Below the pieces are notes generated by a model. The model was not told the origin of the DNA. It ran no database searches and worked only from the letters and a program-made list of their open reading frames with translations. The translations under genes and the position numbers were made by a program. A stretch of DNA of 7,009 nucleotides from a virus. Its lineage: Duplodnaviria; Heunggongvirae; Uroviricota; Caudoviricetes. Positions 362 through 6,431 of this stretch are shown in pieces (position 1 is the first letter of the stretch; each line of letters starts with the position of its first letter). The stretch lies in the IMG/VR virus record IMGVR_UViG_2690316166_000010; one strand, 5' to 3'.

Positions 362-1342
362 CTAACGTCCTGCTTTTAACAATAACCAGATAAACACCGG
401 CGCACCCAACGTTGCGGTGACCACGCCAATAGGCAGCTCTGCGGCAGCTAATGCCAGGCGCGCTACAATATCGGCCAGCAGCACTGCGCTCGCCCCTGCC
501 AGCGCGCAGCCGGGAAGTAATACGCGATGATCGGTTAAACCACACAACCGAAGAATATGTGGGATCACCAGACCAATAAAGCCGATAGCACCCGCCAGCG
601 CCACACTGACGCCAACCATCCAGCCGGTCGCTGCCACCAGCACATTGCGCCAGAACCACAGGGGTAAACCCAGTTGCCGCGCCGAGATCTCGCCAAGTGC
701 TAACATATTCATCGGCCTGGACTGACAACAGATCCACAACAACACGGGGATCAATGCCAGCATCAGCCAGCTTTGCCGCCAGTCTACGCCGCCAAAACCG
801 CCCATCATCCAGTACATCAGCTGACGTAAATCAACAGAGGTGGAAAAGTAGATAGCCCACGTCATTAGTGCGCTACAGATAATCCCTAATGCAACGCCAG
901 CCAGCAATAACCGACTGGTCGAAAGATGACGACGGGCGAAACGTAAGAGTATTAAAGTGATGATAAGCGCGCCAGCAATCGCACACAGCCCTAGCGCCCA
1001 GTTGGGGAGTTGCCCTTGCCCAAGCAATACCGCGGCGATAAGCCCCACGCCTGCGCCGTTAGAGACGCCAAGTAGTCCAGGTTCTGCCAGAGGATTTTCA
1101 AACAACGCCTGCATTACAGCGCCGGATATAGCCAGCGCCGCACCAACCAGCAATACAGCCAGCGTACGTGGCAGGCGAATTTGCCAGACGAACAGTTCGC
1201 CACGAGGAGTAAACCAGTCACCTGGCGAAATCCATTGTTCACCGGCGCAAAGGCTTAAGAGAAGCGCCAGCAGCATCAAAACTGACAGGCATAATAACCA
1301 GCGAATATTTTGTCGCTGTTGTTGGCGGGCAAGTGTCAGCAT
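362..1342 (-). CDS. btuC: Vitamin B12 ABC transporter permease BtuC (326 aa)
   Basis: Six-frame ORF 362..1342 (-) translates as [44 protein letters not shown]...LLLKAGR, which I recognise as E. coli BtuC. Highly hydrophobic polytopic membrane protein; sits directly upstream of btuE as in the btuCED operon. Confidence 0.95.
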
Positions 1343-1398
1343 GGTATCCGTTCTGCTGAAGTGTCATGGCGTTGATTTTACGGTGACTCTTCGACAGT

Positions 1399-1425
1399 GA
1401 AAAGAAAAAAGGCCGCAGAGCGGCC
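1399..1425 (-). terminator. Rho-independent terminator acting on leftward (minus-strand) transcription
   Basis: Perfect inverted repeat GGCCGC (1411..1416) / GCGGCC (1420..1425) with 3-nt loop. On the minus strand it is followed by TTTTTTCTTTTC (complement of 1399..1410). Lies downstream of the minus-strand ORF ending at 1535 and upstream of the btuC start. Confidence 0.7.
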
Positions 1426-1534
1426 ATAAACACAAACAAAAATCAATAAGTTAGGTAATTATCAAAGACTTACAGACACACAAAAACACAGCCAACCACA
1501 ACAAATAACAGAGATGTGGTCAATTTGTGGATCA

Positions 1535-2089
1535 TCAGCCAACAAATTTAGCAACAAATACAGCAACCGCCGCTGTGAAAATGGTTGTGCACACTGGCAC
1601 AATAATGCCACTCCAACGCCACTTCGTATTATCATCAACCTTGTCAAACCGCCGATTCATCTCATCCATAATCTTGTCAAAGCGTTTATCCATCGCTTCG
1701 GTAAGCTCACCCTTCAGGCTGTTAATGTCTGATTTGAGCTGCTCTTTCAGGTTAGCTGTATCAGATTTAAGCTCACCTTTCAGATTCGCAATATCGCATT
1801 CAAGATCACCTTTCAGATGTGCTATGTCTGCTTTGAGTTCACCTTTCACCTCACCAACATCGGCTTTAGTTGAGAGGTTTGTAGTGCGTTCAGCAAGCGT
1901 CGCAAGGTCGTTTCTTGTTAGCGATAAATCACCTTCGAGCCGCTCAATTCGCCTTTCAAGTTTATCTGACATTCCGCCTCCACTACTGCCGCCATCGCCA
2001 CCATGATAAAGCACATCACGCTCAGAATGCGACACACTACCTGCTGAATTACCGAAAAGATTTCTTGCTACATTACCCATTATCACCAT
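1535..2089 (-). CDS. Tail-anchored coiled-coil protein with five 11-residue (hendecad) repeats and a C-terminal transmembrane helix; hypothetical prophage cargo protein
   Basis: ORF 1535..2089 (-). N-terminal Gly-rich stretch (GGDGGSSGGG), then consecutive 11-aa units (VKGELKADIAH / LKGDLECDIAN / LKGELKSDTAN / LKEQLKSDINS / LKGELTEAMDK), then C-terminal hydrophobic segment WSGIIVPVCTTIFTAAVAVFVAKFVG. A more likely start is ATG at complement of 1970..1972 (MSDKLERR...), preceded by GGAGG (complement of 1977..1981) with 4-nt spacer, giving 145 aa. Terminator downstream at 1399..1425. Confidence 0.65.
   Translation of the reverse strand: MVIMGNVARNLFGNSAGSVSHSERDVLYHGGDGGSSGGGMSDKLERRIERLEGDLSLTRNDLATLAERTTNLSTKADVGEVKGELKADIAHLKGDLECDIANLKGELKSDTANLKEQLKSDINSLKGELTEAMDKRFDKIMDEMNRRFDKVDDNTKWRWSGIIVPVCTTIFTAAVAVFVAKFVG
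1705..1869. repeat. Five imperfect tandem copies of a 33-bp unit inside the coiled-coil CDS
   Basis: Units at 1705..1737, 1738..1770, 1771..1803, 1804..1836 and 1837..1869 share a conserved core CTTTCAG(G/A)T and GATTT(G/A)A ends (e.g. GCTCACCTTTCAGATTCGCAATATCGCATTCAA). Each encodes one 11-residue protein repeat on the minus strand. Confidence 0.85.
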
Positions 2090-2333
2090 CCTGCGCTTTG
2101 TCTTTCTCCAACCACTTCAGCACCGCAGACGTACGATAAAGGCTCAGGTAACCACAATTCAGGCAATGCAGCGTGTAATAAGTTTTGCGCATATCAGGTA
2201 TGCTCTTAACATCACCCAAAAAAGCATAAGATACATAATGCTTTATGTTCTCTTTAATTAACTCACTCTGTTCCTCCAGGGGTAGATTGTTAAAATTTTC
2301 TGGTTTCTTATTTTTATCCCAGCAAAGATCCAT
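2073..2333 (-). CDS. Hypothetical protein, 86 aa if it starts at the visible ATG; the true 5' end may lie in the masked region
   Basis: Minus-strand reading frame open from the N-run down to stop TAA (complement of 2073..2075): MDLCWDKNKKPENFNNLPLEEQSELIKENIKHYVSYAFLGDVKSIPDMRKTYYTLHCLNCGYLSLYRTSAVLKWLEKDKAQDGDNG. AT-rich DNA. Its 3' end overlaps the 2089 start of the coiled-coil gene, suggesting an operon. No convincing Shine-Dalgarno at the visible ATG (2331..2333). Confidence 0.35.
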   Translation of the reverse strand: MDLCWDKNKKPENFNNLPLEEQSELIKENIKHYVSYAFLGDVKSIPDMRKTYYTLHCLNCGYLSLYRTSAVLKWLEKDKAQDGDNG

Positions 2334-3156
2334 ACTTTCTGGAACAGATAATCNNNNNNNNNNNNNNNNNNNNNNNNNNNNNNNNNNNNNNNNNNNNNNN
2401 NNNNNNNNNNNNNNNNNNNNNNNNNNNNNNNNNNNNNNNNNNNNNNNNNNNNNNNNNNNNNNNNNNNNNNNNNNNNNNNNNNNNNNNNNNNNNNNNNNNN
2501 NNNNNNNNNNNNNNNNNNNNNNNNNNNNNNNNNNNNNNNNNNNNNNNNNNNNNNNNNNNNNNNNNNNNNNNNNNNNNNNNNNNNNNNNNNNNNNNNNNNN
2601 NNNNNNNNNNNNNNNNNNNNNNNNNNNNNNNNNNNNNNNNNNNNNNNNNNNNNNNNNNNNNNNNNNNNNNNNNNNNNNNNNNNNNNNNNNNNNNNNNNNN
2701 NNNNNNNNNNNNNNNNNNNNNNNNNNNNNNNNNNNNNNNNNNNNNNNNNNNNNNNNNNNNNNNNNNNNNNNNNNNNNNNNNNNNNNNNNNNNNNNNNNNN
2801 NNNNNNNNNNNNNNNNNNNNNNNNNNNNNNNNNNNNNNNNNNNNNNNNNNNNNNNNNNNNNNNNNNNNNNNNNNNNNNNNNNNNNNNNNNNNNNNNNNNN
2901 NNNNNNNNNNNNNNNNNNNNNNNNNNNNNNNNNNNNNNNNNNNNNNNNNNNNNNNNNNNNNNNNNNNNNNNNNNNNNNNNNNNNNNNNNNNNNNNNNNNN
3001 NNNNNNNNNNNNNNNNNNNNNNNNNNNNNNNNNNNNNNNNNNNNNNNNNNNNNNNNNNNNNNNNNNNNNNNNNNNNNNNNNNNNNNNNNNNNNNNNNNNN
3101 NNNNNNNNNNNNNNNNNNNNNNNNNNNNNNNNNNNNNNNNNNNNNNNNNNNNNNNN

Positions 3157-3776
3157 ACACGGCGCTGCTCCAGTGCCGCTACCTCGCCCCATCGCGCCCC
3201 GGTCGACAGAAGGATTTCGACGGCCAGCCGTTCATCGGGATTTTCAGCCAGTGCATCCAGCAACTGAACACATTCAGACTTACTCAGATATCCCATTTCA
3301 CGCTCGTTAACCTTCATTCCTTTAAGGCCTTGAACGGGGTTATCGTTAAGAAAATGGCCGGATGAGATGAGTGCGGTAAACATCGCGCTTAACGCCCCAA
3401 TCTCTCGATTTATGGTGCTGGGCTGTATCCCCTGCTCTATCCTGGACACACGTAGCTCGGTGAGCATCGTTGTATTAAGTTTATGCACGCACGGGTCATC
3501 CATTGCCTCACTCAAGCGCAGCAATTTAAGGCGCGTGTTATGCCCTGACTTCATTAGCTGGCCGTGGTATTTCCACCACAAGTCAATAAGCACTGACAGC
3601 GGACGGCGATCAATGGAGTTTCCTTTCCACTCATTGTTATGCTGTTGCGCCAGCACCCACCGCTCATATAAAACTGCATCCGATTTCGTTTTAAATTTTT
3701 TGCGAATGCGTTTGCCTTTACGCCCCTCAGGACGCATGTCAAGAAGATACCCTCCCGGAATTGATTTTATGCTCAT
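3157..3776 (-). CDS. int: P2-like phage integrase (tyrosine recombinase), N-terminal ~206 codons visible; 3' end hidden in N-run 2354..3156
   Basis: From ATG at complement of 3774..3776 the frame reads MSIKSIPGGYLLDMRPEGRKGKRIRKKFKTKSDAVLYERWVLAQQHNNEW...LSTGARWGEVAALEQRR. This closely parallels the phage P2 integrase N-terminal region as I recall it (GRKGKRIRKKF, DDPC, QGIQPSTINRE, LSTGARWGE motifs). The 617-aa six-frame ORF is a chimera across the N-run. Confidence 0.85.
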
Positions 3777-3825: not shown

Positions 3826-4137
3826 TTAGCCGGGCTGTGTGCCAGTCTTGCGGGATTTTTGAGAAGACGATGTGTTTTCTGGCCCATCAGGGGAGAGAGA
3901 AGGACTGATCTGCCCAGCAGCCTCATTTGTTTCGTTACTCATCAACCACGTAGTGTATTTTTTAAATTCCGGGTGCATTGTGATTTTCAGTAAAACCTCC
4001 GTTCCCACACCTCGAATACCAGTCTCGTATTGCTTAACCGTACCAACCGCAATACCTATTGAATCCGCGAACTTTGCCTGACTAAGCCCCTCAGATTCTC
4101 GAATTGCTTTTAGCTTCTTTGATATCTCTATTGACAT
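3826..4137 (-). CDS. C: P2 C-like immunity repressor (103 aa, helix-turn-helix)
   Basis: ATG at complement of 4135..4137, preceded by AGGTG (complement of 4144..4148). Product MSIEISKKLKAIRESEGLSQAKFADSIGIAVGTVKQYETGIRGVGTEVLLKITMHPEFKKYTTWLMSNETNEAAGQISPSLSPDGPENTSSSQKSRKTGTQPG resembles the P2 C repressor as I recall it (FTKYTLWFMTNQ...GQIAP...SGQKTG) in length and motifs. Position between int and a divergent cox-like gene fits. The six-frame ORF start at 4239 is an upstream extension. Confidence 0.8.
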   Translation of the reverse strand: MSIEISKKLKAIRESEGLSQAKFADSIGIAVGTVKQYETGIRGVGTEVLLKITMHPEFKKYTTWLMSNETNEAAGQISPSLSPDGPENTSSSQKSRKTGTQPG

Positions 4138-4525: not shown

Positions 4526-5036
4526 ATGCTGAAGCAACGCCGTAATTTTTGTACCGGAACAGAACGCCACGCTAACCGTTTCACTACCAGTGCATCACGC
4601 AGCAACATCCGCTACAGCCTGAGTGATACACACGCAACGCCGGATGGCTACCCAGTAAAACAAATCGGCGAGCACGCCTGGCTGATTGAGAAAGCTGGAA
4701 TCGTGATCCACAAATGCCCACGCAATCCGTTTACCGGAAACCGCATTTTTGCACTGAGCTGTGGCGACAATCAGTTCGGGCAGGATTTCACATTATACGA
4801 AGCACTTCGCACGGTTGATCGTCTGCTTCGCGGGCAAAGTTTTATTAAACAGGCTGATNNNNNNNNNNNNNNNNNNNNNNNNNNNNNNNNNNNNNNNNNN
4901 NNNNNNNNNNNNNNNNNNNNNNNNNNNNNNNNNNNNNNNNNNNNNNNNNNNNNNNNNNNNNNNNNNNNNNNNNNNNCTTCGCACGGTTGATCGTCTGCTT
5001 CGCGGGCAAAGTTTTATTAAACAGGCTGATTTATAA
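4526..5036 (+). CDS. Hypothetical early-operon protein, interrupted by N-run 4859..4976; about 112 aa if the flanking 54-bp repeat is a gap artefact
   Basis: ATG 4526 preceded by GAGGTG about 8 nt upstream. Frame open to the N-run: MLKQRRNFCTGTERHANRFTTSASRSNIRYSLSDTHATPDGYPVKQIGEHAWLIEKAGIVIHKCPRNPFTGNRIFALSCGDNQFGQDFTLYEALRTVDRLLRGQSFIKQAD. The same final 18 codons recur after the gap, followed by L and stop TAA (5034..5036). Several Cys/His residues; no family recognised. Confidence 0.5.
4805..5030. repeat. Perfect 54-bp direct repeat flanking the 118-nt N-run
   Basis: 4805..4858 (CTTCGCACGGTTGATCGTCTGCTTCGCGGGCAAAGTTTTATTAAACAGGCTGAT) is identical to 4977..5030. The N-run lies exactly between the two copies. 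Confidence 0.9.
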
Positions 5037-5345: not shown

Positions 5346-5588
5346 ATGGGCAAAGAATATAAAACTCTCATTAACAAAGCACTTGAGCGTTTTTATTTTC
5401 GCTTAAGTGCATCAGGCGCTCATGCTGAACGTGCGGCCCGTGACTCATTGACCAGAGCAATCCGAAGTCTGTATGACGTGGCTTTTTACGCTGATGATCT
5501 GGATGCACTTAACGAACTTTCCGAGCTGATCTGTGCCGCAGAATGCGGGGAACATATTGAACCGTATAAGCTGGGAAATATCGCATGA
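5346..5588 (+). CDS. Hypothetical early-operon protein (80 aa; alternative GTG start at 5343)
   Basis: ATG 5346 with AGGG 7 nt upstream; stop TGA 5586..5588. Product MGKEYKTLINKALERFYFRLSASGAHAERAARDSLTRAIRSLYDVAFYADDLDALNELSELICAAECGEHIEPYKLGNIA. Same strand and close spacing as neighbouring genes. Confidence 0.55.
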   Translation: MGKEYKTLINKALERFYFRLSASGAHAERAARDSLTRAIRSLYDVAFYADDLDALNELSELICAAECGEHIEPYKLGNIA

Positions 5589-5698
5589 GTATATTTATTT
5601 CATGGCTTGTTCTGATTATTTCGGTGGTCTGCGCCATTGGGATTATGCGAATTATTAATTCAGTAAAAAAGATTGAACGCTTTTTCACTGAAGAATAA
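5585..5698 (+). CDS. Small hydrophobic single-pass membrane peptide (37 aa), absent from the supplied ORF track
   Basis: ATG 5585..5587 overlaps the upstream stop TGA 5586..5588 (ATGA coupling). Product MSIFISWLVLIISVVCAIGIMRIINSVKKIERFFTEE, stop TAA 5696..5698. One hydrophobic helix followed by a charged tail. Confidence 0.45.
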   Translation: MSIFISWLVLIISVVCAIGIMRIINSVKKIERFFTEE

Positions 5699-6157: not shown

Positions 6158-6431
6158 NNNNNNNNNNNNNNNNNNNNNNNNNNNNNNNNNNNNNNNNNNN
6201 NNNNNNNNNNNNNNNNNNNNNNNNNNNNNNNNNNNNNNNNNNNNNNNNNNNNNNNNNNNNNNNNNNNNNNNNNNNNNNNNNNNNNNNNNNNNNNNNNNNN
6301 NNNNNNNNNNNNNNNNNNNNNNNNNNNNNNNNNNNNNNNNNNNNNNNNNNNNNNNNNNNNNNNNNNNNNNNNNNNNNNNNNNNNNNNNNNNNNNNNNNNN
6401 NNNNNACATCTGTAACAAGAGGATTGCCGCA

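Follow-up and report, generated by a model that had tools for sequence, protein, structure and literature searches.

A two-gene accessory cassette bordered by the integrase gene and the attachment site in a P2-like Escherichia coli prophage

Organization of the locus

The 7,009-nucleotide stretch of viral DNA analyzed here (IMG/VR record IMGVR_UViG_2690316166_000010, Caudoviricetes), called the window below, begins with the Escherichia coli genes btuE and btuC (positions 1-1342). The remainder belongs to a P2-like prophage of about 35 kb, of which it forms the left end. Two minus-strand genes, here named A and B, form an accessory cassette inside this prophage, between the integrase gene (int) and the attachment (att) arm. 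The cassette lies within the att boundaries, is dispensable and is swapped between otherwise near-identical phages, which are the features of cargo (moron) genes. The closest complete genome, that of E. coli O26 RM8426 (NZ_CP028116.1), shows 99.7-100% identity to the window across all the unmasked stretches and served as the reference. The prophage sits in this genome between btuC and ihfA, the K-12 spacing of which is 100 bp.

On the minus strand of the reference, the genes are arranged in the order C-type repressor, integrase, A, and B, followed by 109 bp of non-coding DNA and the att core (Table 1). In the window, two co-oriented open reading frames (ORFs) are found on this strand, one at 1535..2089 and the other from 2073 upward, which agrees with the initial annotation, where at least two overlapping ORFs were described between int and btuC in an AT-rich interval: the guanine plus cytosine (GC) content is 41% between int and att, 49% in int, and 52.6% in the rest of the prophage. 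The length of about 0.9 kb given there for the interval has to be corrected to about 1.15 kb. The run of N in it (2354-3156) consists of 803 N versus 580 bp in NZ_CP028116.1 (99.7% identical); the second (4859-4976) consists of 118 N versus a 54-bp overlap in the reference, the 54-bp flank being duplicated (4805-4858 = 4977-5030); and the third (6158-6405) of 248 N versus 188 bp. All three behave like scaffold gaps of misjudged size. The ORF of 617 amino acids (aa) read through the first of them is an artifact, because the gap is wrongly sized, and ORFs read across any of the N runs are unreliable.

The partly masked ORF upstream of B was confirmed, and it is neither a fragment nor a part of int: the full-length A is a separate ORF of 166 aa, the sequence of which was taken from NZ_CP028116.1 and in which B has a putative zinc-ribbon partner. 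Its ATG starts 2 nucleotides (nt) past the int stop codon in the reference, with a strong ribosome-binding site (GGAGGA) located within the last int codons. The residues F54, F57, L58, C67, C70, G71, C137, C140, G141, Y146, and W154 are invariant in A and can be aligned across diverged versions of 120, 127, 129, 132, and 160-166 aa. This pattern is that expected of a helix followed by a Cys4 zinc ribbon, and the AlphaFold 2 (AF2) model has a mean predicted local distance difference test (pLDDT) score of 83.6. The protein, which is annotated by NCBI only as hypothetical, matches phrog_4293 (8e-23), a family of unknown function; no Pfam, NCBIfam, or PADLOC family and no structural match were found for it. 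The possibility that A might be a zinc finger of the Ogr/Delta type was ruled out, since no match with PF04606 was obtained. When 1.84 billion cluster representatives were searched with the profile of the A family, 198 relatives were recovered, all but one of them small stand-alone proteins, and no informative domain fusion was present among them. Neither conserved catalytic residues nor enzyme domains were found in A or B, which fits a mechanism based on binding or on the membrane.

The start of B was placed at the ATG at 2080, where A and B overlap by 8 nt, instead of the 17 nt given by the longest reading frame. This start is backed by the 181-aa cluster representative P0001 (98 member sequences) and by the equal 8-nt overlap present in the 76%-identical allele L022; the 145-aa protein called by NCBI leaves out an N-terminal region which is conserved in frame in every allele. 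The Gly-rich linker, the five 11-residue repeats and the C-terminal hydrophobic segment mentioned in the initial annotation are all present in the sequence. Residues 1-26 form a variable N-terminal tail (N-tail) predicted to be disordered, which is followed by the Gly-rich linker (residues 27-36, GGDGGSSGGG) and by a helix (residues 37-69) beginning M-S-D-K-L-E-R-R-I-E-R-L-E. Next comes an L-S-T-K-A-D motif (residues 69-74), and it is exactly at 70-71 that the helix predicted by AF2 breaks, the model as a whole showing disorder from 1 to 36 and helices at 37-69, 72-145, and 150-180. Residues T71, K72, D74, and W154 are invariant, the first three of them across 20 homologs, and diverged alleles read F-A-T-K-S-D at this point.

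The repeats of B (KGELKADIAHL, KGDLECDIANL, KGELKSDTANL, KEQLKSDINSL, and KGELTEAMDKR) have the general form K-G-E-L-K-x-D-x-A-x-L, and the Tandem Repeats Finder (TRF) program detected a 33-bp period at window positions 1744-1848 with a score of 105. Homologs of 192, 181, 170, 159, and 148 aa differ by whole repeats, and the strict pattern occurs in 0-6 copies across the B homologs. The peak of hydrophobic periodicity, near 3.67-3.75 residues, is consistent with a coiled coil made of 11-residue repeats. Downstream of the repeats are a conserved M-D-K-R-F-D-K segment and, just before the predicted membrane helix, a conserved K-W-R-W-S-G juxtamembrane motif, and the protein ends in the hydrophobic segment IIVPVCTTIFTAAVAVFVA, with a Kyte-Doolittle mean of 2.43 over 19 residues.

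The boundaries of the prophage were obtained by aligning the K-12 btuC-ihfA intergenic region to the lysogen. This region matches both ends of the prophage with an overlap of 25 bp, which corresponds to a direct repeat with one copy in the window (Table 1) and a second copy 35 kb away, beside ihfA. Exactly two copies of the repeat exist in 41 kb, one at either end of the prophage, as against a chance expectation of 0: this repeat is the att core. With the att core on the btuC side and in two copies only, A and B are indeed prophage cargo located between int and the chromosomal junction, as had been proposed. The possibility that the cargo might be a separate element integrated in tandem was ruled out, a third att core being absent. 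On the minus strand, the att core is an intrinsic terminator of the ihfA type (GGCCGCTCTGCGGCC followed by a T run), the strong hairpin lying at window positions 1411-1425 and the T run at 1401-1410. It is the only strong minus-strand terminator of the region and is a duplicated copy of the ihfA terminator. The terminator with which the initial annotation credited the cargo is thus the attachment site itself, because the minus-strand att core is the ihfA terminator. The att arm, which joins the att core to the end of B, shows 97.6-99% identity in all the cassette alleles, precisely as far as the B stop codon, and is probably an attP arm, in which binding sites for recombination proteins would be located.

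The att site falls inside the small RNA family STnc540 of Rfam (RF02082), which spans the 3' end of ihfA, the terminator, and the btuC leader. In K-12, the locus is intact and the unoccupied site (L002 5154-5312) scores 67.4 bits for this family, the threshold being 38, as against only 22 bits for the btuC-side junction of the lysogen (window 1326-1466): the integration of the prophage breaks up the STnc540 locus yet duplicates the terminator hairpin. No RNA family was detected by the Rfam scan within the cassette.

Table 1. Positions of the cassette and of the adjoining features in the window
Feature	Positions	Strand	Basis
Int-proximal att core, 25 bp, AAAGAAAAAAGGCCGCAGAGCGGCC	1401..1425	.	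K-12 alignment, two copies, terminator scan
Conserved non-coding att arm, 109 bp, 32% GC, from att core to B stop codon	1426..1534	.	Allele comparison
Gene B, 181-aa tail-anchored coiled-coil protein	1535..2080	-	ORF list; start conservation
Predicted C-terminal transmembrane anchor of B, residues 159-177	1550..1606	-	Hydropathy
Five 11-residue (33-bp) repeats of B, residues 79-133	1682..1846	-	TRF and repeat register
Gene A, visible C-terminal 92 codons and stop; N-terminal 74 codons in N run	2073..2353	-	Reference L003 1998-2498
P2-type tyrosine integrase, visible N-terminal part (325 aa in reference); 3' end in N run	3157..3776	-	Reference comparison
C-type helix-turn-helix immunity repressor	3826..4137	-	Annotation

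Exchange, pairing, and distribution of the cassette

The integrase of this prophage was identified in about 306 of the 5426 complete E. coli genomes. The interval proved to hold variable cargo: in prophages with the same integrase, the flanks, which extend as far as the B stop codon and the last int codons, respectively, have kept an identity of 97.6-99.8%, and everything between these points is replaced. About 144 of the integrase carriers have one of several diverged A+B pairs and 158 have an unrelated gene. The pair most widely distributed among them is a strongly diverged one with proteins of 120 and 145 aa (86 genomes), followed by the B type of the window, associated with an A of 166 or 132 aa (39 genomes), and by a short pair of 127 and 99 aa (19 genomes). 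The commonest alternative occupant is a gene encoding a single soluble protein of 131 aa (L006 1607-2002 in E. coli 1303, and 157 other complete genomes), for which no Pfam or PADLOC match was found. The slot looks less like one for random cargo, as about half the time it holds diverged versions of one pair.

The A types share only 22-27% identity, the adjacent int sequences being 98-99% identical. The B sequences are mosaic, with a recombination breakpoint at the Gly-rich linker, so that the same stalk and anchor are combined with different N-tails. The type of N-tail always goes with the type of A, across genera: A proteins of 166 aa are found with tails of the form MGN..RDV.Y and those of 132 or 129 aa with tails of the form M.YAK..G.T.IR. 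This co-variation fits a putative binding of A to the N-tail, and the rapid diversification of both genes is typical of genes involved in conflict.

All the IMG/VR contigs with B (33/33) also have an ORF carrying the A signature, the end of which is located 0 to -17 nt from the start of B, and an integrase just upstream. The pair is present in the E. coli alleles L004, L005, L007, L022, and L024, as well as in Salmonella (L012), Klebsiella (L009), and Providencia (L015). In Salmonella, it occupies the same btuC site and A has not been called as a gene; in Klebsiella, it adjoins dadX and the integrase is a different one. One phage record from Klebsiella, either circular or episomal, shows the order int-A-B followed by late genes. 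In Providencia stuartii (L015 5001-5817), an A of 166 aa and a B of 107 aa devoid of 11-residue repeats are located beside ogr with no adjoining integrase, and the module is therefore not strictly bound to the int-att slot. A and B are always adjacent, either overlapping or abutting, which suggests that they are translationally coupled, and their pairing is obligate. The ratio of nonsynonymous to synonymous substitution rates (dN/dS) amounts to 0.12-0.15 for A and 0.33 for B, as compared with 0.07 for int: A and B are real genes under purifying selection, with homologs in four genera. Pathogenic E. coli (O26, O103, O145, and O157), Shiga-toxin producers included, are numerous among the carriers. 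Among the 50,697 deposited phage records, no match with A was obtained, and the matches with B were restricted to one Klebsiella record and to Liberibacter and APSE phages. Insertion sequences have hit the cassette both ways: A is truncated and a B-like gene intact in one IMG/VR contig (L078 2612-3282), and B is truncated in E. coli M1/5 (L008 4110-5624).

Several other accessory genes are carried by the same prophage outside the window (coordinates on L003): a gene for a 500-aa PIN-domain protein between gene D and ogr (33822-35324), a Hok/Gef toxin gene adjoining the far att site (36019-36159), a pair encoding ParM and a partition protein after the replication gene (9173-10448), and a serine O-acetyltransferase gene beside the tail-fiber genes (26015-26587). 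Within the window, a 37-codon ORF in the early operon (5585-5698, plus strand), annotated as a hypothetical protein in the reference, encodes one hydrophobic helix (MSIFISWLVLIISVVCAIGIMRIINSVKKIERFFTEE).

Relatives of B

Pfam, NCBIfam, and PADLOC gave no match above threshold for A, B, or the other alleles, and the matches obtained with B consisted mostly of coiled-coil noise. The initial annotation had suggested that the protein might be of the DUF1640 or of the XhlA type. The former suggestion is supported by the motif at the start of the stalk, by a match with PF07798 (CCDC90-like, formerly DUF1640), and by the NCBI annotation, in which B is named DUF1640/CCDC90, and the latter has kept only a weak likeness, seen with the short allele. 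The PF07798 match of the window B, the third best in Pfam, amounts to 24.1 bits and that of P0001 to 25.1 bits, both below the gathering threshold of 33.5 bits, and the B-type matches cover profile positions 68-171 of 175. In a search of 5.8 billion sequences, the proteins P0048 and P0051 matched B with E values of 3e-12 and 4e-8, respectively, and P0051 passes the PF07798 threshold with 46.1 bits. No XhlA match was obtained with the window B in Pfam at E values up to 1; in the case of the 99-aa allele (L024), XhlA (PF10779) was the best Pfam match, with 18.5 bits as against a gathering threshold of 34.7 bits. XhlA, which is associated with lysis in PBSX, resembles B in having a short coiled coil and a C-terminal membrane helix, but the A and B genes are located outside any lysis cassette. 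B also matches phrog_9415 (6.5e-15), and the comparison of its profile with Protein Data Bank (PDB) chains gave marginal matches only, with engineered beta-layer constructs and 6h9l (E 0.005-0.12).

The stalk of DUF1640 proteins starts with a hallmark motif, the beta-layer motif, which reads [aliphatic]-A-T-K-[polar]-[D/E] (PMC4786415), and the L-S-T-K-A-D motif of B occupies the same place. A helical stalk and a single C-terminal membrane helix are likewise typical of the family and predicted in B, and canonical DUF1640 proteins have a similar ending, composed of KW...G and a membrane helix. B differs from them in its phage-specific variable N-tail, its Gly-rich linker, its obligate (putative) zinc-ribbon partner, and its tandem K-G-E-L-K-x-D repeats of variable number. 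The distant chromosomal DUF1640 homolog examined, unlike B, has neither the N-tail and linker nor an A partner.

An unexpected outcome of the plasmid search performed with B was the recovery of the Bdr proteins of Borrelia (for example L027 175-849, on the lp29 plasmid of Borrelia miyamotoi). The BLASTP match between Bdr and B (2e-13) extends over the repeats and the ending made up of KW..G and the membrane helix, a region which is repetitive and of biased composition. Bdr itself passes the PF07798 threshold (41.1 bits versus 33.5), and this, taken with the shared repeat and ending, links two prophage-borne families, Bdr and the E. coli prophage protein B. The 11-residue repeats of the two proteins are closely similar (VKSDLKSDIMS in Bdr and LKGELKSDTAN in B), both proteins are encoded on prophages or plasmids, and in both of them a C-terminal anchor follows the KW..G motif. 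They differ in that Bdr belongs to another phylum and another type of phage and has no known zinc-ribbon partner. In addition, the B repeats do not contain the KID/KIE tripeptide, which is the defining feature of Bdr repeats (PMC4370689). As the likeness lies mostly in the repetitive region of biased composition, common descent and convergence are not cleanly separable in the case of Bdr and B. In the light of these data, B can be filed as a divergent member of the DUF1640/CCDC90-like/Bdr superfamily, which falls short of being a certified Pfam member.

Expression, possible role, and comparison with known systems

In phage P2, the lysogenic promoter drives the joint transcription of the repressor gene C and int. 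Since neither a sigma-70-like promoter nor a strong terminator was detected on the minus strand in the stretch from the repressor to the att core, and since the att-core hairpin ends the unit, A and B are probably made in lysogens. The repressor would be the first gene of a presumed C-int-A-B lysogenic transcription unit: the pair would be transcribed with the repressor and the integrase from the lysogenic promoter, and the transcript would end at the att-core hairpin.

The C-terminal helix of B would be inserted in the inner membrane, with a projecting stalk of variable length tipped by the flexible Gly-rich linker and the short N-tail. Because B lacks a signal peptide and is composed of 150 hydrophilic residues with a membrane helix only at its very end, the stalk should stay cytoplasmic, and it might be trimeric, as in other DUF1640 proteins. 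A, as a small cytoplasmic protein with a Cys4 zinc ribbon, might dock on the N-tail at the tip of the stalk and, on the inner side of the membrane, sense or capture a component of a phage entering the cell. The outcome would be either exclusion by sequestration or damage to the membrane via the B helices, leading to abortive infection. From the position of the pair, its likely expression and its diversification, we infer that it is a reasonable candidate for phage exclusion or defense. The view that A and B form a membrane complex which is expressed in lysogens and acts in conflicts between phages is the one we favor, tentatively and with somewhat less than even confidence. The more specific view that they constitute a fairly widespread two-component system directed against phages or satellites, in which a zinc-ribbon sensor is carried by a trimeric stalk tuned by 33-bp repeats, seems possible to us, if doubtful.

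Several points weigh against a role in conflict. No paper or experiment tying either protein to defense was found in the literature search, nor was any publication mentioning the A and B genes. With PADLOC-DB v2, B gave only coiled-coil noise (weak matches with the coiled-coil parts of LmuB, ZorA, and LeoBC, with E values of at least 4e-5 and scores of at most 21 bits), and nothing meaningful was obtained for A or the other alleles. The alternative 131-aa occupant is also of unknown function, so that there is no guilt by association. The characterized relatives of B give no hint of defense either: the mitochondrial MCUR1 and CCDC90B are scaffolds, and the function of Bdr is unknown. The co-variation of the N-tail with A could be due to physical adjacency alone, and the cytoplasmic topology, the trimerization, the binding of A to B, and the co-transcription have all been inferred.

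It is unlikely, in our judgment, that the pair serves the life cycle of the prophage, either as an XhlA-like lysis accessory or as a membrane-tethered modulator of integration or excision co-translated with Int. Arguments of this kind can be based on the weak XhlA match of the short B allele, on weak PHROG matches of the window B with holins, hemolysins, and spanins (E 0.004-0.03), and on the close coupling of A to int, with a spacing of 2 nt or an overlap. However, the XhlA and holin matches are all far below threshold, a complete lysis cassette (holin, endolysin, and LysB/LysC-like genes) is present elsewhere in the prophage, about half of the near-identical prophages hold an unrelated gene instead of the pair, and the few matches in deposited phage records argue that the pair is dispensable.

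There is a similarly small chance that the pair brings about a lysogenic conversion of the host physiology, with B as a membrane scaffold resembling MCUR1/CCDC90B or Bdr which alters transport, stress response, or colonization, and A as a regulator. The assignment of B to the DUF1640/Bdr superfamily, the fact that Bdr is an inner-membrane protein encoded by cp32 prophages and made during infection, and the pathogenic nature of many of the E. coli carriers are consistent with such a role. No host partner is indicated by the data, however, and the extreme divergence of the alleles and the swapping of the cassette would not be expected of a scaffold placed on conserved host machinery; besides, the distant chromosomal DUF1640 homolog has no A, which argues that A and the N-tail are phage-specific additions.

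Less probable still is an addiction module stabilizing the prophage, in which B would be a membrane toxin and A its antidote. The combination of a small membrane protein with a small cytoplasmic partner, apparently coupled in translation, is reminiscent of such modules, and the prophage already has a Hok/Gef toxin at its other end, which would act in a comparable way. On the other hand, the contig in which an insertion sequence truncates A has retained an intact B-like gene, the size of B far exceeds that of typical membrane toxins, most of the protein being a soluble stalk, and the search for an antitoxin-like domain (DNA-binding or protease) in A was negative. Lastly, the idea that the two ORFs are functionless, chance or decaying frames in AT-rich att-proximal DNA, to which the low GC content and the NCBI description of A as a hypothetical protein might lend some color, is effectively refuted by the purifying selection on both genes, the Cys4 and motif residues invariant across four genera, the confident model of A, the PHROG matches of both proteins, and their obligate pairing.

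The combination found here, which has not been described, is that of a two-gene module with parts of known kinds: an anchor of the DUF1640/Bdr type, a prophage cassette slot, and a putative zinc-ribbon partner. If A and B act in conflicts, they would add a small, enzyme-free, membrane-tethered mechanism to the defenses carried by prophages, and the int-att slot of P2-like phages would be a place in which more defenses should be sought. If the system is directed against phages, it would provide the first experimentally tractable function for a bacterial DUF1640 protein and a hint at the role of Bdr in cp32, and the function of DUF1640/Bdr-type proteins would become testable in E. coli. Bdr has been studied since 1999 and still lacks a known role; these inner-membrane proteins of cp32 prophages are described as having a function that "has yet to be discovered" (PMC10016077). 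Mechanistic studies could take advantage of the differences in repeat number, of the modularity of the N-tail, and of the obligate association with a partner. Even if no phage phenotype exists, the locus shows clearly how a cassette beside an attachment site is exchanged with precision.

As regards the known systems, the resemblance to RexA/RexB of phage lambda is one of logic only, since a pair consisting of a cytoplasmic and an inner-membrane protein would act in both cases in conflicts between phages. RexA/RexB and the prophage-mediated defense pairs located next to the immunity cassette of mycobacteriophages are likewise composed of a cytoplasmic and an inner-membrane protein, are transcribed in connection with the repressor, and are dispensable. 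There is no known relationship in sequence or fold between the Rex proteins and A or B; RexB is polytopic and RexA is much larger. The closest parallel to the location is given by the variable hotspots of P2-like phages, where, as here, exchange affects a precisely bounded cassette with conserved phage genes on either side. As a minor defense hotspot of P2-like prophages, the int-att interval has been reported to account for 3% of the P2 defense systems (PMC13586616). The classic hotspots, two in number, have other locations, one of them between gpA and Q and the other in the tail genes. In the slot described here, about half of the sites are filled by diverged versions of a single pair instead of unrelated systems.

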